A DNA stretch of 63,445 bases, the filler included, from Deltaproteobacteria bacterium (lineage in GTDB: Bacteria > JAUYMQ01): assembly GCA_030698575.1 (NCBI GenBank). It is 10 parts of 10 records of this genome, joined end to end, with 100 filler letters (N's around TTAATTAATTAA, not from the genome) between each part and the next. Parts side by side here need not be neighbours in the genome. Positions count along the whole stretch, not along the records: positions 3,109 to 8,787 come from JAUYMQ010000255.1; 9 more parts are not named here. One strand, given 5' to 3'. Under the pieces are notes generated by a model that had not been told where the DNA came from, searched no databases, and saw nothing but the letters and a program-made list of their open reading frames with translations. The number at the start of each line of letters is the position of its first letter. The stretch's first letter is position 1. A program made the position numbers and the translations under genes. Shown here one piece after another: positions 3,009-60,482 of the stretch.

Positions 3009-3108
3009 NNNNNNNNNNNNNNNNNNNNNNNNNNNNNNNNNNNNNNNNNNNNTTAATTAATTAANNNNNNNNNNNNNNNNNNNNNNNNNNNNNNNNNNNN
3101 NNNNNNNN
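3009..3108. other. Artificial contig spacer (others at 8788-8887, 11863-11962, 15326-15425, 19508-19607, 22890-22989, 43685-43784, 48208-48307, 60383-60482)
   Basis: Identical N-run/TTAATTAATTAA/N-run blocks that put stops in all six frames. Confidence 0.99.
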
Positions 3109-3291
3109 CTTCCGGGCAGCGGGGATTCGTCTTTTAGCGTGGTAGCTGAGGCGCGTTATGAACTGGAAAAGAGGATTCGGAAGCGAAGAAGCGCAGGTCA
3201 GAACGCCCTCTGGAGCAACGTGGCCCAATCGTTAATTATCAGCCTGTGCATGGCGAATTGCCAATTAGGTAGCCATGGGGAGATCGAATAG
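3109..3291 (+). CDS. C-terminal fragment, possibly of a site-specific recombinase
   Basis: LPGSGDSSFSVVAEARYELEK resembles recombinase C-termini that overlap a degenerate tRNA 3' end; only 60 aa visible. Confidence 0.3.
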   Translation, partial: LPGSGDSSFSVVAEARYELEKRIRKRRSAGQNALWSNVAQSLIISLCMANCQLGSHGEIE

Positions 3292-3496
3292 TCCCCGCCG
3301 AGTTCTTCGTGGCGGGGAAACCGATGGTAGAACGGCCTCCGGGGCAACCCCGCCGAATCGCTGATTTTCAGCCACAAATTGAAATTCGCCAGCTACAGGT
3401 TGGCTTCGGTCCCCAACGAAGCTGGTTCGGAAGAGAGCGCCGGTCCGATCATGCGGACCAACCCAAACCCCCGAATACCGGCCAGATAAACAAAGA

Positions 3497-3572
3497 CCCC
3501 GGCCGCTCACGCCGCCGGGGTCGTCGTTCACACCAAGCCGCGCACTTCGCGCGGCTTTTAATTTGGCTCCCC
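3497..3572 (-). repeat. 76-bp structured element, copy 1
   Basis: 63/76 identical to 5803-5878 with no gaps; two hairpins; second hairpin followed by UCUUUGUUU on the minus strand. Confidence 0.85.
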
Positions 3573-3709
3573 AGGGTCAACCCTCTTCATAACCACTCTC
3601 TGAAGAGAGTATCAGGCGAACCTCGAACGAAGGGAGACCTCTTTCCGGCAATCGATTCTACATGGGTTCACCCAGACCCCTGTGGATCTGACGCCACCAG
3701 TTCGACGGA

Positions 3710-5422
3710 TTAAATGATGATCACCGTCCCGTCGAACCGGGTGAGGGAGAAACCCGCGAAGTCTTCCTCATAGGTCGCCTTTTGGTCCCGCAGGACGCCG
3801 ATCGCGACGGCCTCGCCCAGCGCCAGAGATTCCGAATAGTCAGTCCGCCAGTGAATGCCCGCGAAGTTGCGTCCAAATGCGATGTTCGCGGCCACTTTGT
3901 CGAGTTCGCCCCCGACGGTCAGCGCGCCCGCATCCGGCCCGGTGTAGGCAACGAGCGCGGTCCCGGCGGCGTTGGGAACCACGGGATCGGGAAGGACGAA
4001 GGATTCGTCGAACCAGGCCTTGAGAATGGTCACGCACGCGCCGGCCACGGTTGCATGCCCCGCGCCGTAGGCCGGGTGAAGCGGAGAGCCCTCGGGATAG
4101 GCCTGTGGGAGGAAGTAGGTCCCATACAGGTCGAAGGCCTCACTTACAGCCTGCGAGCTGAGAATTTCGGCGTCGATGGGATAGACCGCGGCGCCAGTCA
4201 TGTGATGGTGGATGCGCCCACCAAAGGACTCGGGGCGCAGGCGGCGGTGCACGTACCACTTCTGGTACCAGACGGCCTTGAGCGCGCGCGTCGCCACCTC
4301 GGTCACGAGGCTCAGGATGTGCGGTCCCCCGAAAGTGGCGAACGCGTCCGTCCGGCTGAGGCCGTGGTAGGGGTTGCCCGGATCCACAGCTGCACCCATG
4401 CCGAGGAGGATCAGGCACGCGTTCAGGTACGCCTCGTACAGCGCGTCGTAGTGCACGTACGCGGCCAGGTCGCGTCCGTTGCGGATGTAGCGCGGCGTTC
4501 CATCCAGGGCATCGGCGAGCACCGGATTGTCGCCGTTCTGGATCGCCAGCCACGAAGCGGGATCGGTCATGTAGTCGAGGCCCGGAAGGACTGTCTGCTG
4601 GCGCTGGTTGATGGTCAGCGTCCCATAGGGGATGTCTTTCAAGAGAAATTGCGACAGGTAGGGGCCGGCCAGATCGCCAGGAGTGTTTCCGCGGAAGATC
4701 GCGGCTGGCGTGACGAGTCCCGCCTGCTTCGGCCCTCGAAAATCCGAGAAGCCCGAGAGGTCCGCGCAGCCATCGGCGATGAGACCGTCGCTCCCGTAAT
4801 CGGCGAAGTGCACGTCCCGGGCAAGCGCCATCCAGTAAAGCTCGCTCATCTCGGCCGAATTCTCCGGCCCGTCGATGCGCGGCGCCGGGCGAATCGCCAG
4901 ATGGTGGGAATCCGGGCCCTGCAGGTCGAATGCGATGCCCGCCTGCGGGTTTCTCAAGGGACGGTCGCCACCCTGCGGGATCGTCTCGAAGGCAGCGTGG
5001 CTGCCCACCGAGAGCGCGGCCAGCATCGCCTGATAGGCCGAAGGTGTCACTTCGCCCAGATCGTTGTGGGGAAGGCCCTTCGAGAAGTTGGCGAGGTAGG
5101 GGTAATCGCTCTCCTCGCCGTTGTCGGGATGGAGGGGGAGTGGAAGCTTCCTCTGGGTGAGCGCCGCTTGCTGTCGGATGCGGAACGCATCGTTGCGCCG
5201 CCTGCGCGCGTCTCCACTGCCCTGCTCCGCGGCCAGTGCCTCTGCGCCCTTCGGTGAGCCCGCGAGCAGTGAGCCTCCTGTGCCCGCGTCCACGGCAAGC
5301 GCTGCCATGCCGCCGATGCCGGCGAGAAATGCACGCCGGCTGCAGGAGGCCGGAGAAAGGGCTTCGTTCTCGATCGTTGAAGGGTTGTTCCCGTCGATGC
5401 CGTCTTCGCTTGTTCGATTCAT
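3710..5422 (-). CDS. Vanadium-dependent haloperoxidase with Tat signal
   Basis: SRRAFLAG Tat motif; KWYVHRRLRPE, HPAYGAGHA, RNFAGIHWRTD vanadate-binding motifs; start taken at MNRTS (ORF track extends to 5671). Confidence 0.92.
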   Translation of the reverse strand: MNRTSEDGIDGNNPSTIENEALSPASCSRRAFLAGIGGMAALAVDAGTGGSLLAGSPKGAEALAAEQGSGDARRRRNDAFRIRQQAALTQRKLPLPLHPDNGEESDYPYLANFSKGLPHNDLGEVTPSAYQAMLAALSVGSHAAFETIPQGGDRPLRNPQAGIAFDLQGPDSHHLAIRPAPRIDGPENSAEMSELYWMALARDVHFADYGSDGLIADGCADLSGFSDFRGPKQAGLVTPAAIFRGNTPGDLAGPYLSQFLLKDIPYGTLTINQRQQTVLPGLDYMTDPASWLAIQNGDNPVLADALDGTPRYIRNGRDLAAYVHYDALYEAYLNACLILLGMGAAVDPGNPYHGLSRTDAFATFGGPHILSLVTEVATRALKAVWYQKWYVHRRLRPESFGGRIHHHMTGAAVYPIDAEILSSQAVSEAFDLYGTYFLPQAYPEGSPLHPAYGAGHATVAGACVTILKAWFDESFVLPDPVVPNAAGTALVAYTGPDAGALTVGGELDKVAANIAFGRNFAGIHWRTDYSESLALGEAVAIGVLRDQKATYEEDFAGFSLTRFDGTVIII

Positions 5423-5802
5423 CTTGACGTTCCTTCTGACGTTGCCGCGCTGTGACCCGCGACATGCGCGGGACCGGCTAGCGCACACCCTTCCGCCGGT
5501 CGCGATCCCGGAGGGAGGGGCGCGTACGTGCGCTTCTGCCGTCGACCCGTGACACGCGAGAGCAGGAGGTCGCTTGCGGCGCTCGCTTGCTTTGGTCCGG
5601 GGAGGCAGTGACCCCCGCGGCTTTTCGAGGGGGTCATCGCGCGACCGACCCGGCCGGGCCGATGCCGGCATAATGACATAACCTGAGGGGAAAAACCCAG
5701 TATATTGCCGGGAGAGTCGCGGGGTTAAGACGCCGCGGGGCCGGGCGAGAGGCGGGCCGATTCGAGGGGGGGGAGGAGAGGTCTAATGAAACATGAGCAC
5801 GG

Positions 5803-5878
5803 CCCCGGCCGCTCTCGCAACCGGGGTCGTCGTTCACAAGCCGCCGCGCCCACAGCGCGGCTTCTGATTTGGCTCCCC
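5803..5878 (-). repeat. 76-bp structured element, copy 2
   Basis: Direct repeat of 3497-3572. Confidence 0.85.
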
Positions 5879-6190
5879 GGAATTCTGTCCAGCAACTGTG
5901 AGTAGGAAGACTCTCCGGAGGATGCGAGAGTCGATCCATAGAGTACAATCCTGGTACACACCTGATCACCGGATTCGGCGGGCCACCTCCATCCCCGCCG
6001 GCTCTGAGACATGCCTGGAGCTTTGGGGGAGGGTGAGCGAATCGTTGGATCTTTGGGCCCTAGTGGGGGGTGGCCCCGACCTCTTGACCCAGCGGCCCCG
6101 ATCGACTCTAATCCCCCGGCCCATTCGGTCTCCCCTTACGCGCGCGGGCGCCGGGGGAGACGGCGGGGTTATCCGGGAGGAGGATGGCGC

Positions 6191-7471
6191 GTGAGCCAGC
6201 CTACGCGAAGTTCGGATGTGATCGTCGTCGGGGCGGGGCCCGCCGGGTCGGTTGCGGCGACGATGCTCGCGCGCGCCGGGGTCCGGGTCACGTTGCTTGA
6301 TAGAGCGCGGTTTCCCCGCGACAAGATCTGCGGCGACGCGGTGGGCCTCGATGCGGTGCGGATTCTCCGGCGGTTGGATCTCGTGCAATCCCTTCACGAC
6401 GCCGGCGCGGTGCCCATCAGCGAGACTCTCATCACGTCGCCGGAGGGCAAGAGGGCGCGCTTCATCGCTCCCCCCGCGCCCGCCTACAAGCGCGGCTTCA
6501 TCCTTCCCCGCATGGTCCTCGACTTGGCCCTGGCCGAGGCGGCGGTGAAGGCGGGCGCCACGCTGATCGAGGAGTTCAAAGTCCAGGCACCGATCCTCGA
6601 AGACGGGCGGGTCAAGGGCGTGGAAGGGATCACGGAGAACGGCGGGACGGCGTCATTCCGTGCGCCCGTGGTCATCGCCGCGGATGGCGCCCATTCGGTC
6701 CTCGTGCGCGCGCTCGGCCTCCGGCCCGCGAGAAGCGGTGGGCGCGCCTTCGCCGTCCGCGCCTACTACGAGGGAGCGGAGGGTCTGGGCTCCACGCTGG
6801 AGCTGCACTACATCAGGGAGATACTTCCCGCCTATGGCTGGATCTTCCCGACGGGGCCCTCCACCGCGAACGTGGGGATCGGCGTGTGGGGCGGCGAGGG
6901 AGAAAGCAAGCGGCTCCGGGCGCTTTTCGACAGCTTCGTCAACGAGCATCCGGCCTCGCGCGAACGCCTGGGCCGCGCAAGGGCCGTCTCGCCCGTGCGC
7001 GGCTGGCCGCTCGATCTCGGCAACAACGCCGGACGCAGCTCGGCCGCCGGCCTTCTCGTGATTGGCGATGCAGCGTCGTTCGTGGATCCGATCACCGGCG
7101 AGGGAATCGGAACGGCGCTCGTCTCGGCCGAACTGGCCGTCCACACGGCCCTCAAGATCCTCGAGCGCGGGGAGTTCTCGGAGCGCGCCTTTCGAGAATA
7201 CGACCGGGCCTGGCGCCGGAAGCTGGGCTGGGATTTTCGCGGCGGAGTCGCGCTCCAGCACCTCCTGGCCCGCCCGCGCGCCGTCGAGACGGTGGTCGGC
7301 CGCGCGGCGAAGGACGAGGTCATCGCTGCCGTCCTCAGCTCAATCGTCGGCGGTGCCATCCCGAAGTACATCGCTTTCCATCCACTGGTTCTCGCGCGGT
7401 TCGCCTTCGGGAAGCGGGTTCCAGTTCCGGGGCCGCGCCGGCGGCGGGGGGCGCCGAGCCCCCGGAGCTGA
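6191..7471 (+). CDS. Geranylgeranyl reductase family FAD-dependent oxidoreductase
   Basis: DVIVVGAGPAG, FPRDKICGD, YGWIFP, GDAA..DPITGEGI; GTG start with GGAGG RBS. Confidence 0.9.
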   Translation: MSQPTRSSDVIVVGAGPAGSVAATMLARAGVRVTLLDRARFPRDKICGDAVGLDAVRILRRLDLVQSLHDAGAVPISETLITSPEGKRARFIAPPAPAYKRGFILPRMVLDLALAEAAVKAGATLIEEFKVQAPILEDGRVKGVEGITENGGTASFRAPVVIAADGAHSVLVRALGLRPARSGGRAFAVRAYYEGAEGLGSTLELHYIREILPAYGWIFPTGPSTANVGIGVWGGEGESKRLRALFDSFVNEHPASRERLGRARAVSPVRGWPLDLGNNAGRSSAAGLLVIGDAASFVDPITGEGIGTALVSAELAVHTALKILERGEFSERAFREYDRAWRRKLGWDFRGGVALQHLLARPRAVETVVGRAAKDEVIAAVLSSIVGGAIPKYIAFHPLVLARFAFGKRVPVPGPRRRRGAPSPRS

Positions 7472-7516
7472 GCGGGCCACCGATCGTGGCGCCGGCGCTC
7501 AAGCCCTTCCTTAGCC

Positions 7517-7798
7517 ATGTTCCGGAGCTTCCGCTGCAAGGAAACAGACAAAATCTTCCGGCGGGAGTACTCCAGGAAGTTCCACCCCGGCGTTCAGCAC
7601 GTCGGGCTCCGGAAGTTGGTGATCCTCGACGCGGCGGAGACGCTTCAGGATCTTCGACTCCCTCCCTCGAATCGCCTGGACAAACTCTCCGGGGATAGAA
7701 AAGGGCAACACAGCATTCGCGTCAACGATCAATGGCGGATCTGCTTCCGGTGGAAGGAAGGCGACGCCTACGACGTGGAAATCGTCGATTATCACTGA
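7517..7798 (+). CDS. higB: HigB/RelE-family toxin
   Basis: DLRLPPSNRLDKLSGDRKGQHSIRVNDQWRICF...VEIVDYH. Confidence 0.93.
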   Translation: MFRSFRCKETDKIFRREYSRKFHPGVQHVGLRKLVILDAAETLQDLRLPPSNRLDKLSGDRKGQHSIRVNDQWRICFRWKEGDAYDVEIVDYH

Positions 7799-7812
7799 GG
7801 TACCGATAGACC

Positions 7813-8118
7813 ATGCCAAAGAAGAAAATGGCGCCTGTCCATCCCGGGGAGGTTCTCCTGGAGGAGTTTCTCGATCCCATGGAGATCACCCAGTATCGGC
7901 TCGCCAAGGCCATCAGCGTGCCGGCCCGCCGCATCAACGAGATTGTTCTGGGCAAGCGCGCCATCACGGCCGATACGGCCCTGAGGCTGGCACGTTATTT
8001 CGGCACGTCCGAGCGGTTCTGGATGAATCTCCAGGCCCGTTACGACCTGGAGGCCGAGAAGGATCGACTGGGAGCAAGGCTGGACCGCGAGGTCGAGATC
8101 CACAGAGCCACTGGATGA
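7813..8118 (+). CDS. higA: HigA antitoxin (HTH)
   Basis: PVHPGEVLLEEFL...RINEIVLGKRAITADTALRL...FWMNLQARYDL; follows the toxin. Confidence 0.93.
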   Translation: MPKKKMAPVHPGEVLLEEFLDPMEITQYRLAKAISVPARRINEIVLGKRAITADTALRLARYFGTSERFWMNLQARYDLEAEKDRLGARLDREVEIHRATG

Positions 8119-8185
8119 GAACTTGCAGAGCGAAGCGAACCTGCGGGGTTCGGGCTGGGACCCCTCTCTTCTGACGAAATTACGG

Positions 8186-8209
8186 CGGCCGTTAACTGGT
8201 TAACGGCCG
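8186..8209. repeat. Perfect inverted repeat
   Basis: CGGCCGTTAAC-tg-GTTAACGGCCG. Confidence 0.7.
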
Positions 8210-8359
8210 AGTTCGAAATTGCTGAAAACGCCCCCTCGCAACCCTTTGTGGCACCCGAGAATTCCGGCCGCCTGATCCTAGCTTGAGGATTCCTCAAACT
8301 CTTCGAATACTTCCCGCTTTTCCGAGCGCCCACCTCATCCCTACTTCCGGAACCGGCCG

Positions 8360-8497
8360 ATGCTCTTCATCCCTTCCCTTCTGGCCCTCTTTCGAACCCT
8401 CACCCAGGACCGGGCCGACCTTGTCCTCGAGAACCTGGCCCTCCGCGAGCAGCTCGCGATCCTCCAGAGGCACAGCAAGCGCCCGAAGCTCTTGTGA
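8360..8497 (+). pseudogene. N-terminal remnant of an integrase-core (rve) IS transposase
   Basis: DLVLENLALREQLAILQRHSKRPKL matches the typical 'LENLALRQQLAVL..RP.L' N-terminus; stops after 45 aa. Confidence 0.7.
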
Positions 8498-8712
8498 ACG
8501 GTCGCGTGCTGAAGTAGCCAGCGCCTTCCGCCGTTAGCTTCAGCGGAACAGGCAATTGACAGGAAGTGCATACCCTGTCAACGTAGAAGACATGAACCCC
8601 CTCCTTAGGTTGCCCCGCCGTGGGTAGCCGGCCCGGTGGAGGTGGCCGAAGTGGCGCGCTGAGAGAAGCTCAAGCAACTCGAGGTCCACGTGGCTTGAGC
8701 GGGAGCTGGGCG

Positions 8713-8787
8713 ATGACGAGGAGCTACCGCGTCGAGATCGAGCAGGAGGAGGACGGCCGCTTCCTCGCCGAGGTGGTCGATCTGCCC
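8713..8787 (+). CDS. HicB-family antitoxin (partial)
   Basis: YRVEIEQEEDGRFLAEVVDLP. Confidence 0.75.
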
Positions 8788-8903
8788 NNNNNNNNNNNNN
8801 NNNNNNNNNNNNNNNNNNNNNNNNNNNNNNNTTAATTAATTAANNNNNNNNNNNNNNNNNNNNNNNNNNNNNNNNNNNNNNNNNNNNCAGATGGAGGTGG
8901 GGC

Positions 8904-11826: not shown

Positions 11827-12203
11827 TGAGCGCCTCTCGGCAACAGGTGGCCATCGTGACCGNNNNNNNNNNNNNNNNNNNNNNNNNNNNNNNNNNNNNN
11901 NNNNNNTTAATTAATTAANNNNNNNNNNNNNNNNNNNNNNNNNNNNNNNNNNNNNNNNNNNNCGGTCACCTCGGAGGACCGTCCCATTCGCCCGCCCGCT
12001 GGGTCGCCTTCGTGTGCCCACGGCTCCTCCCGTGCCCCGGCCATCATCGCCACCTCACCTCTGCTCGCCTCTGCATCGCCCCCGATCCCCTCCCACACCC
12101 TGCACCGGGGCGCGCGCCCCACCCCGCCATGCCACCCGTCTTTCATTTCCCCCACACCACCCCTGCGATAGAATCCCCATAGGGCGACCCTCGGCGGGGT
12201 TGA

Positions 12204-15325: not shown

Positions 15326-15425
15326 NNNNNNNNNNNNNNNNNNNNNNNNNNNNNNNNNNNNNNNNNNNNTTAATTAATTAANNNNNNNNNNNNNNNNNNN
15401 NNNNNNNNNNNNNNNNNNNNNNNNN

Positions 15426-19507: not shown

Positions 19508-20041
19508 NNNNNNNNNNNNNNNNNNNNNNNNNNNNNNNNNNNNNNNNNNNNTTAATTAATTAANNNNNNNNNNNNNNNNNNNNNNNNNNNNNNNNNNNNN
19601 NNNNNNNCCCCAGGTCCGAGAAGTTCGCGCCCGAGCCCAGGACGGACGGCCGTCCTGCACGGGCGGGGCGGCATGTGGGGGCCTGCGGGGTGGGATCGGG
19701 CAGCGGCTGCGCCCCGGGCGTCGGTGGGCCGAGGCTCCGCAGGCCGAGCGGGCGGACGTGGGCGGCTGCGGCGGAGCGGGGGCACTCACTCATAGCGGGC
19801 GCAACACCGGGGCAGGTTCCGCGGATGGATGGTCAGGATCTCGGCGGTCCGCCCGTCAGGGGTCCTCTGGGGGCGGCTGAAATTACCTCTTGCGCTCGCA
19901 TCGCCCCTCCTCTGCGGCGCGAGCACGGGCGCAGACACTTCATCTGATCTGGGGAGCGGATGGATGATGCGCTCCCCAACACGGCCCAAGAAACTGAGGG
20001 CCCGACGCGCAACTCTTGCGCTATAGTGATTCGCCGAGGCC

Positions 20042-22889: not shown

Positions 22890-22989
22890 NNNNNNNNNNN
22901 NNNNNNNNNNNNNNNNNNNNNNNNNNNNNNNNNTTAATTAATTAANNNNNNNNNNNNNNNNNNNNNNNNNNNNNNNNNNNNNNNNNNNN

Positions 22990-33413: not shown

Positions 33414-34924
33414 CGCGTTGACTCCCTCCCGTTGAGATTCTCGAGGAGCGCTTCACCCGCCCCCTCTCTCCTCGCTTCGCCTGCCAGCTCGCCTGCCAGC
33501 TCGCCTGCCAGCCCGCCTGCCAGCGCGCCTGCCAGCTCGCCTGAATGAACGCTGTCGGGAATCCCCACGCCCTCCAGCCAGTTTCCCGCAAGAGCGAGGC
33601 CCCGATGCCGCGCCGCCGCGCGGCGGATCGCCTCGACACGCCCCAGGTGTCCGGGCTCGTACTGCGGCATCGAGGCGGGGTGGCGATGGACCGCCGAGAA
33701 GATCGGCGGCTTCCGGACGCCCAGGATCTCCCCCAGCTCCGCGCAGGCCGCCTCGACCAGTGACGAATCCGGCGCTTCGAGTGAGCCGGGCGCGAGATTC
33801 CCGCCGAGGAAGGCGCGGATCAGCGCAACGCCCGGCGGCGAGCGCCCGTCGAACTTCACGCTCGAGAACGTCACCGCCAGGATTCGCCGCTTCTCCACCT
33901 GCGGTGCGACGAAGCCGAAGGCGTCGAGCGGGTGAGGGACGTCCTCCCGCGCCCAGGCCAGCGTCACGATGGCCGACGACGCCGTGCGGATCGAGCCGAG
34001 GAGTGCGGACAGCTCCGGATCGAGCTCCGACAGCAGGCGCGCGCTCGCGGCGGCAGGCAGGGCCAGCAGCACCGCGTCGGCAGGAAGGCTCTCACCGCCG
34101 GCGAGGCCGAGCGCGAAGACGCCGTTCCGCCGGCCAAGGGACTGCGCCTCGACACCGAGCCGCAACCGGTCGGGCCCGATGACGCGGGCCAGGGCACCGG
34201 TCAGCGTCTGCATACCGGCGTCGAAAGAGGCGAAGAGCCCGTAACGTGCGCCGGAAGCGTTGCGCTGCTCGCCCGCGGTCGCGCGCAGCCCGCGGACGAC
34301 GCTTCCGTAGTCACGCTCGAAGGCAGCGAAGCGTGGGAGGGTTGCGCGGAGGCTCAGCCCATCTGGACTGCCCGTGTAGATGCCCCCGACGAGGGGTTGC
34401 GCGAGGCGATCCAGGCATTCCCGTCCCAGCCGGCGCCGGACGAACGCCCCCACGGATTCGTCCTCTTCCGCGGCGGCGCCACGGCGCCGGGGGATGAATG
34501 GCTCGCAGGCCGCCCGCAACTTTCCCCGCCAGGACAGCAGCGGGGTCGCGAGGAAAGCCGGCCATTCGGCCGGCGCCAGCAGCTGGAAGCCCTGCGGGAC
34601 GGGGAGAAGCCGTCCCCGGTGCAGGATAAGGGCCCGGCGCGTGCGCGGATCGTCCCGTGTGGCCACCAGGAGTTCGCCGAGACCAAGGCGCCGCGCGAGG
34701 TTCTCCGCCCAGGGCTTTTCCGTGAAAAACGAATCGGCTCCCCACTCCACGAGGATTTCGCCGAGGGGTGTCGACTCGCGCGTCGTCCGGATGCTTCCGC
34801 CCGGGCGATCGGCCGCGTCGATCACCTGGAGATCGAGCGGTGCGCCGGCCGCTGCTGCCAGCTCCAGCACGCGGTGGGCCGCCGCGAGCCCCGTGATGCC
34901 GGCCCCGATCACGATGAGCTTCAC
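33410..34924 (-). CDS. hemG: Protoporphyrinogen/coproporphyrinogen oxidase (HemY type)
   Basis: IGAGITGL, EWGADSF, MPQYEPGH, GVGIPD. Confidence 0.92.
   Translation of the reverse strand: MKLIVIGAGITGLAAAHRVLELAAAAGAPLDLQVIDAADRPGGSIRTTRESTPLGEILVEWGADSFFTEKPWAENLARRLGLGELLVATRDDPRTRRALILHRGRLLPVPQGFQLLAPAEWPAFLATPLLSWRGKLRAACEPFIPRRRGAAAEEDESVGAFVRRRLGRECLDRLAQPLVGGIYTGSPDGLSLRATLPRFAAFERDYGSVVRGLRATAGEQRNASGARYGLFASFDAGMQTLTGALARVIGPDRLRLGVEAQSLGRRNGVFALGLAGGESLPADAVLLALPAAASARLLSELDPELSALLGSIRTASSAIVTLAWAREDVPHPLDAFGFVAPQVEKRRILAVTFSSVKFDGRSPPGVALIRAFLGGNLAPGSLEAPDSSLVEAACAELGEILGVRKPPIFSAVHRHPASMPQYEPGHLGRVEAIRRAAARHRGLALAGNWLEGVGIPDSVHSGELAGALAGGLAGELAGELAGEARREGAGEALLENLNGRESTR
33476..33543. 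repeat. 12-bp tandem repeat, about 5.7 copies, inside the hemG 3' end
   Basis: Unit C(T/C/G)CGCCTGCCAG encoding GELA/GALA/GGLA. Confidence 0.9.
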
Positions 34925-43684: not shown

Positions 43685-43784
43685 NNNNNNNNNNNNNNNN
43701 NNNNNNNNNNNNNNNNNNNNNNNNNNNNTTAATTAATTAANNNNNNNNNNNNNNNNNNNNNNNNNNNNNNNNNNNNNNNNNNNN

Positions 43785-48207: not shown

Positions 48208-48307
48208 NNNNNNNNNNNNNNNNNNNNNNNNNNNNNNNNNNNNNNNNNNNNTTAATTAATTAANNNNNNNNNNNNNNNNNNNNNNNNNNNNNNNNNNNNN
48301 NNNNNNN

Positions 48308-60382: not shown

Positions 60383-60482
60383 NNNNNNNNNNNNNNNNNN
60401 NNNNNNNNNNNNNNNNNNNNNNNNNNTTAATTAATTAANNNNNNNNNNNNNNNNNNNNNNNNNNNNNNNNNNNNNNNNNNNN

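Follow-up and report, generated by a model that had tools for sequence, protein, structure and literature searches.

Structured 76-nt repeats around a vanadium haloperoxidase gene are probably att-type junction repeats of tRNA-Asn-targeting integrative elements

The window analyzed here is a stretch of 63,445 nt that joins ten contigs of a metagenome-assembled genome (MAG) of a Deltaproteobacteria bacterium (GCA_030698575.1; 653 contigs, 4.13 Mb, 91.6% complete, 4.6% contamination) with 100-base spacers between them, and in it a vanadium-dependent haloperoxidase gene is bracketed by two structured 76-nt direct repeats, both on one 5679-bp contig (C528, window 3109-8787). An earlier note on this DNA had left two explanations for the pair side by side: a new structured RNA, or attachment (att)-like scars that define a 2.3-kb single-gene module. 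We consider it probable that the repeats are att-type junction repeats of integrative elements that target tRNA-Asn, and that the haloperoxidase lies in a 2.3-kb remnant without a recombinase. The att-type sequence would comprise the last 9-10 nt of tRNA-Asn(GTT), GGGGAGCCA(A), together with 65-175 nt of the DNA that follows. Because the repeats resemble insertion scars at tRNA genes, the haloperoxidase is most likely part of a small leftover island, rather than being flanked by a new class of RNA. An eye-catching structured repeat would thereby be explained as a signature of tRNA-Asn-directed integration, in a phylum for which our reference set has three genomes, and the arrangement suggests that the vanadium haloperoxidase is accessory cargo, travelling now or formerly.

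The two copies (3497-3572 and 5803-5878; family D4 in our repeat search of the window) are identical at 63 of 76 positions (83%) without gaps and are spaced 2306 nt apart, which reproduces the original observation; in a search of the whole 4.1-Mb genome, copy 2 matches copy 1 with an E-value of 3.2e-16. For checks of junctions we used assembled Logan contigs of four runs, X1 to X4, of which X1 is possibly the source sample and X2 belongs to the study that probably also yielded the source. Independently built X1 contigs (records 2 and 4) span both copies without differences. Read on the minus strand, copy 1 begins with the core GGGGAGCCA (3564-3572), equal to the last 9 nt of tRNA-Asn(GTT) with the encoded CCA included, and continues through hairpin 1 (3535-3557; stem of 7-9 bp, 5-nt loop) into an extended hairpin 2 (3487-3529), in which GAACGACGA pairs with UCUUUGUUU around a CCCCGGCGGC/GCGGCCGGGG stem and behind which stands a U-rich tail; UCUUUGUUUAUCU comes directly after the copy. 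On the same strand, the 13 differences between the copies comprise 2 in the linker after GGGGAGCCAAAT, 4 in the loop of hairpin 1, 4 directly past hairpin 1, 1 in the loop of hairpin 2 and 2 in its stem, where a C-G pair and a G-G mismatch become U-G pairs in copy 2. Direct reading thus upheld what had been said of the placing of the differences, 11 of 13 being in loops and linkers, of the U-G pairs and of the U-rich tail.

It is the core that ties the repeat to tRNA-Asn. The end of the repeat had been likened to the acceptor/CCA end of tRNA genes, and GGGGAGCCA is indeed the 3' end of tRNA-Asn(GTT) both in the MAG itself (on contig C441) and in three of the five relatives that we found in metagenomes (L143, L152 and L189); the repeat carries GGGGAGCCA(A) as these four loci do. 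In those three relatives, ARAGORN places an intact tRNA-Asn(GTT) that ends exactly at GGGGAGCCA, with hairpins 1 and 2 directly behind it and, in L189, the downstream extension described below as well. In the remaining two (L155 and L123), the place of the tRNA is taken by an upstream arm of the type that we call type I. L143, of the tRNA type, and L123, of the arm type, come from the same metagenome and have nearly identical hairpin regions, as expected for two ends of one element. The question of whether any copy follows an intact tRNA gene has a divided answer, since it is positive in three of the five metagenome relatives and, in the window, where no tRNA gene was found, meets only a possible decayed tRNA-Asn (5879-5950, minus strand) directly upstream of copy 2, with a 21-nt insertion beside the core and two internal deletions. 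This sequence aligns locally with the tRNA-Asn of C441 over its whole length at a score of 25.5, which was equalled or exceeded in 29 of 2000 shuffles and in 30 of 3000 windows drawn at random from the genome; the regions upstream of six other copies score 12.5-21.0. We regard the decayed tRNA as suggestive only. A contig of run X2 carries a copy-2-like core that continues into the T-arm of a tRNA-Asn (loose end at 5880). Elsewhere in the MAG, the first 200 bases of contig C97 hold a promoter, TTGACG-17-TATTAA, similar to that preceding tRNA-Asn in L143, and C97 shares 85% identity with the upstream 821 nt of L143; just past this contig end there is probably another tRNA-Asn locus that was not assembled.

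What had been described as a pair proved to be a family. An nhmmer profile, with which our covariance model R1 agrees, finds eight copies in the MAG: C528, C121 and C242 carry two apiece, C205 carries one, and C458 has a half copy. R1 also recovers one full copy in a sister genus and, in the third genome of the family, hairpin-2-sized partial matches only, and a DNA search of 61 genomes located the unit in the MAG and one relative, with nothing in the other 59. A pattern scan of metagenomes returned at least 119 stretches; all 119 were scored with R1, and the five relatives named above are the real ones among them, so that further relatives may exist beyond these. By the same model, none of the 118 matches listed from the genome_contigs scan and none of the five from the viral_contigs scan is real; L290, the best full-length alignment among the genome_contigs matches listed, is coding DNA.

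In pairwise comparisons, the copies are 67-88% alike and share a unit that exceeds 76 nt, with an upstream arm of about 30 nt (CAGAGAGTGGTTATGAAGAGGGTTGGCYYT), a longer hairpin 2 and some 90 nt of further conserved sequence downstream, extending to about +185 from the start of the core. Copy 1 has all of these on the minus strand: the type-I arm, or "P arm", CAGAGAGTGGTTATGAAGAGGGTTGACCCT (3573-3602), and the downstream extension, "ext" (3398-3486), which is conserved in C205, C121b, C242b and L189. Copy 2 (5803-5878, minus strand) consists of the core, hairpin 1 (5843-5861) and hairpin 2 (5800-5832) only, with neither a type-I arm nor ext, and is a truncated core of the family unit; the 76-nt limits that had been taken for element boundaries are those of this truncated copy and not of the family. 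The type-I arm is conserved in four MAG copies (C528a, C121a, C121b and C242b) as well as in L155 and L123, a second type of arm is common to C205 and C458, and upstream homology among the copies stops 30-58 nt before the core. The genes directly upstream of the arm-type copies are mutually unrelated, encoding the haloperoxidase, a DUF2784 protein, an RHS protein, a GMC oxidoreductase and a beta-lactamase-family protein. On direct reading, arm and core form a quasi-palindrome, TTGGCTC-TGGG-GAGCCAA (TTGRCYC-TGGG-GAGCCAA), a shape that would be expected of a serine-recombinase site. We also observed that ext ends in a core-like sequence, GGGGACCGAAGCCAACC / GGGGA(C/G)CGAAGCCAACC (3398-3420, minus strand), found at the same place in C205, C121b and L189, and that on C242 a second full core begins exactly where this core-like end lies; the unit may thus have two recombination-type sites about 165 nt apart. 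A small open reading frame starting from ATGAAGAGGG in the arm was dropped as a candidate gene, as its length and stop vary among all copies and it is absent in copy 2.

Recombinase modules lie near some of the copies. Both copies on C121 are 650-790 nt upstream of a DUF2924 gene, and behind the second of these DUF2924 genes come genes for a large serine recombinase of 527 aa (with Resolvase, Recombinase and Zn_ribbon_recom domains) and a helix-turn-helix (HTH) protein. Of the three DUF2924 genes in the MAG, two have a copy at the above distance; the third, also paired with a recombinase, has only 70 nt in front of it before its contig breaks off. Homology between the tRNA-linked relative L189 and C121 continues past the core for 357 nt, in the direction of the DUF2924 and recombinase genes. 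A DUF2924 gene also adjoins the large serine recombinase of Wolbachia prophages, as described in PMC11376236. With the tRNA 3' end in the repeat, hairpins behind an intact tRNA in all three tRNA-linked relatives and copies near recombinase modules, the att-like alternative raised at the outset gained support, and the large serine recombinase with DUF2924 becomes a candidate tRNA-targeting integrase, in what would be an unusual pairing. Between its two copies, C121 also encodes an 1810-aa RHS-repeat protein (L037:3893-9325), together with an insertion sequence (IS) transposase and a DUF2924 gene that lacks a recombinase; from its gene content, this region looks like a decayed island with a polymorphic toxin.

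Put together as a mechanism, integrative elements recombining at the 3' end of tRNA-Asn would have duplicated the junction, probably through successive (tandem) integrations with later decay. The most plausible enzyme would be the large serine recombinase that lies, along with its DUF2924 partner, by two of the copies; its attP core would be the quasi-palindrome of arm and core, and the haloperoxidase unit would be a remnant or, at best, a cassette movable by the recombinase of another element. Several points weigh against this account. Large serine recombinases need short sites only, and one crossover would not leave a repeat of 76-185 nt. The copies, diverged as they are (67-88% alike), include no exact repeats, and those on C205, C242 and C458 adjoin housekeeping-looking genes (ThiF-like, NDH-2 and PHO4). 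C441, which bears the only matching-type tRNA-Asn assembled in the MAG, continues into unrelated DNA behind it, and the decayed tRNA upstream of copy 2 is tentative, with a p-value of about 0.01 under gap penalties of our own choosing. C528 has no recombinase, either between its two copies or outside them; DUF2924 was not found in two relatives, one of them with a copy, although at 90% and 72% completeness this is no proof of absence; and no junction of arm, core and non-repeat flank was found that would tell the host side of the repeat from the element side.

The haloperoxidase itself (3710-5422, minus strand; 570 aa from the ATG at 5422) is the sole gene between the copies and carries a twin-arginine-type signal, SRRAFL. 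Its phmmer matches in the PDB include several vanadium bromoperoxidases, with 1QHB at an E-value of 1.7e-103, and Pfam gives a weak PAP2 match only. On the minus strand, the order is possible decayed tRNA-Asn, copy 2, haloperoxidase, arm with copy 1, and a remnant of an IS. In run X4, a contig (record 28) joins the copy-2 region to a haloperoxidase of 92% identity, and the linkage is therefore older than this strain. As for the 2.3-kb single-gene module that had been proposed, its anatomy fits; against it, the contig has no recombinase and the contigs of the runs contain no clean excision joint. A joint that goes back 2304 nt was considered as a circle or tandem junction and rejected: three of its letters occur in neither copy, and the MAG does not contain it, so it more likely represents another copy than an excision. 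Joints in X4 with short sides of 20-25 (3267 to 3712, and 3262 to 8253) were set aside as evidence, as were stretches that the contigs of X2 to X4 leave uncovered. Across copy 2 and divergent from the haloperoxidase lies a FAD-dependent monooxygenase gene (6011-7471, plus strand) with a weak N-terminal match to tryptophan halogenase, which places two halogenation-type enzymes next to each other across this copy.

The preferred explanation, junction repeats of integrative elements, has precedents in three known kinds of element. Islands and integrative elements at tRNA genes are known to lie between direct copies of a tRNA 3' end and to accrete in tandem at one tRNA, and asn-tRNA-linked islands occur in enterobacteria. 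As in those islands, the repeat described here begins with a tRNA 3' end, one copy stands by an intact tRNA in relatives, other copies stand by element DNA, a recombinase module lies near a copy, and the cargo is diverse; unlike in them, only 9-10 nt belong to the tRNA and the repeat continues for 65-175 nt past the gene, a large serine recombinase takes the place of a tyrosine integrase as candidate enzyme, and the copies have diverged to the extent given above. Staphylococcal cassette chromosome (SCC) and pseudo-SCC elements, whose Ccr enzymes are large serine recombinases, insert at the 3' end of a single conserved gene and stack between direct repeats. Integration at a 3' end, tandem stacking and units without a recombinase would be shared features, and CcrB is the nearest NCBIfam model of the recombinase found here; at 168 bits against a cut-off of 900, however, that recombinase is no member, its target would be a tRNA gene where SCC uses rlmH, and SCC is not known to have a DUF2924 partner. 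The third are cis-mobilizable elements (CIMEs), known from the ICESt1/CIME literature as att-flanked remnants without an integrase. Like them, the haloperoxidase unit is short, lies between two att-type repeats and carries cargo and no recombination genes, but the recombinase family differs.

A functional RNA is the first alternative to be weighed. It would make the unit of about 185 nt (core, hairpins and extension) a structured RNA that acts as the 3' trailer of tRNA-Asn or of upstream transcripts, possibly a small RNA derived from the trailer and amplified by mobile elements. Much of the pairing evidence is in keeping with it. The stretch GAACGACGA, once thought to be an invariant linker, pairs with UCGUCGNUU behind hairpin 2 to give a stem of 19-21 bp, and this extended pairing is kept through double changes (CAGAGA/UCUCUG in C205); the supposed UGUGAACGACGA linker is in fact the 5' half of that stem. 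Across 13 aligned copies, standard pairs occupy 94.6% of cells, compared with 84.0 +/- 1.3% after shuffling (0 of 500 shuffles reach the observed value) and 33-54% when partners are slid, and 11 of 23 pairs change on both sides, with covariation in both hairpins, all counted in an alignment of related sequences that was fitted to the model. On the tRNA-sense strand of these copies, G-U pairs outnumber A-C pairs by 23 to 5, which favors pairing in RNA of that strand, one subfamily being in part counted several times in this excess; both cautions bear on our own account as well. The fold of the copy-1 unit has a z-score of -5.72, and z-scores between -3.4 and -5.5 were obtained for four of the five further copies that were folded. 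There is a possible closing helix, CAGAGAG/CTCTCTG, around the unit, and most copies are co-oriented with their upstream gene. Rfam yields no match at the gathering score in the whole window, so the RNA would be new; at E-values up to 1, positions 3109-6100 give one unrelated weak match, inside the haloperoxidase gene.

Terminator hairpins would explain the pairing equally well, however. A simple terminator scan calls hairpin 1 terminator-like on the plus strand in both copies, with TTTTAATTT behind it in copy 1, and misses hairpin 2 of copy 1 in spite of its U-rich tail, which we attribute to the internal G-G mismatch. We read the two hairpins behind the tRNA as looking like back-to-back terminators: they would be trailing structures of the tRNA, with hairpin 2 stopping tRNA-sense and hairpin 1 antisense transcription, and such a role would explain why pairing is kept despite drift and why G-U pairs gather on the tRNA-sense strand. 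Intrinsic terminators and tRNA 3' external transcribed spacers (3'ETS), from which small RNAs derive in E. coli, similarly have GC-rich hairpins right behind the tRNA gene, and the U-rich tail of hairpin 2 in copy 1 and the terminator-like hairpin 1 on the opposite strand agree with this; they differ in that the tail of hairpin 2 here lies mostly within the stem and the unit is copied to at least 8 places. The loops are not conserved either. The GNRA cap put forward as a structural hallmark occurs in 2 of the 13 aligned copies and appears incidental rather than a feature of the family, and the best-conserved stretch that seemed single-stranded is a stem. Copy 2 lacks most of the unit and folds with a z-score of only -1.44, and the family is restricted to one small lineage. 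The claim of a new structured RNA is supported in part, by covariation, the tRNA-sense G-U bias and the lack of an Rfam match, but the layout is that of a tRNA trailer with terminator-like hairpins, no evidence of an RNA gene in its own right came to light, and overall we think it improbable that a functional RNA accounts for the repeats.

To a similarly small degree, we credit a dispersed repeat of low copy number, akin to repetitive extragenic palindromes or miniature inverted-repeat transposable elements (REP/MITE), which would have originated from the flank of tRNA-Asn, multiplied through transposition or IS-to-IS recombination, and be at most a portable terminator. The varied contexts of the copies, housekeeping-like genes included, speak for it, as do contigs that break at the repeats and a frequent companion, an IS481-like IS that has inserted into or next to five of the eight copies in the MAG and two of the five from metagenomes, and makes IS-mediated rearrangement plausible. 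This IS, also seen at L038:188-1373 and L042:3076-4276, has the ends TGTRNNTGGCGAATT and about 19 end-fragments genome-wide; full copies on C242 and C458 encode a 362-aa transposase with rve and HTH_32 domains, whose nearest model, IS481, is matched below its cut-off. Directly after the ext of copy 1 lies a transposase-less, MITE-like copy of 153 bp (3245-3397, minus strand), with the ends TGTAGCTGGCGAATT ... AATTCGCCATGCACA, which does show MITE features, namely terminal inverted repeats, a target-site duplication and many near-identical copies; its family was also considered as a cassette boundary and ruled out, being the ends of the IS. Three of the six mapped insertion points fall 0-16 nt behind hairpin 2, which suggests that the IS targets the hairpin or terminator, and this preference is probably why the assembly shatters here. 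In practice, the result accounts for the contig breaks of the MAG at these places and indicates where to look for the missing tRNA-Asn locus. For the repeat unit, by contrast, the high copy number of a REP/MITE was not found (8 copies only), and pairwise comparisons revealed no terminal inverted repeats or target-site duplications bounding it. On the left, it has a sharp edge at the 3' end of the tRNA, with an intact tRNA there in three relatives, and the copies are diverged and carry compensatory changes, unlike recent transposition products.

Somewhat more doubtful still is a combination of RNA function with integration, in which the trailer of about 185 nt (hairpins 1 and 2 and the extension with its CAGAGAG/CTCTCTG closure) would be a functional RNA that inserting elements carry along and place behind the strong tRNA-Asn promoter of the host, thereby hijacking it, and leftover copies would still form the tails of cargo transcripts, among them the haloperoxidase mRNA, and stabilize them.

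Finally, the repeats could be attC sites of an integron, with the haloperoxidase as a gene cassette. The two are alike in that structured, fold-conserving repeats bracket single genes, here co-oriented ones around one gene, and the same genome has a true integron integrase, IntI (C206, L045:992-1984; TIGR02249 score 450.8 bits, cut-off 265), which lies tail-on to a canonical attC at 68-129. We scanned the genome for attC box pairs 50-140 nt apart that fold together, and obtained 22 matches on six contigs (C50, C308, C364, C206 and single ones on C297 and C210), among them five near-identical 90-nt sites, GCCTAAC...GTTAGGC, at C50:12728-15057, spaced 391-779 bp. None of the 22 is on the repeat-bearing contigs C528, C121, C242, C205 and C458, and the repeats have no IntI/attI array context, IntI and the attC arrays being on other contigs. 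Whereas genuine attC sites here are canonical (about 90 nt, one imperfect hairpin), the repeat lacks the R''/R' boxes (RYYYAAC/GTTRRRY), having (T/G)GT(G/T)AAC ... G-N-TT(A/C)W instead, and folds, in consensus and in single folds, into two or three separate hairpins rather than a single spanning one. On boxes, fold and location of the genuine sites, we rejected this reading, which has next to no probability left. The scan did bring to light a complete chromosomal integron elsewhere in the genome (C206, C50, C308 and C364).

The remaining features of the window concern its construction and two minor loci. The synthetic spacers, N runs around TTAATTAATTAA, occupy positions 3009-3108, 8788-8887, 11863-11962, 15326-15425, 19508-19607, 22890-22989, 43685-43784, 48208-48307 and 60383-60482. 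The largest repeat family of the window, D1 with 27 copies, consists of these TTAATTAATTAA spacers and was discarded, and any feature that crosses them is an artefact of concatenation. Further along C528, a gene pair encodes a HigB-like toxin and an HTH antitoxin (7517-7798 and 7813-8118, plus strand), and on another contig, window positions 33466-33555 hold a six-copy tandem repeat of the 12-nt sequence CGCCTGCCAGCT.

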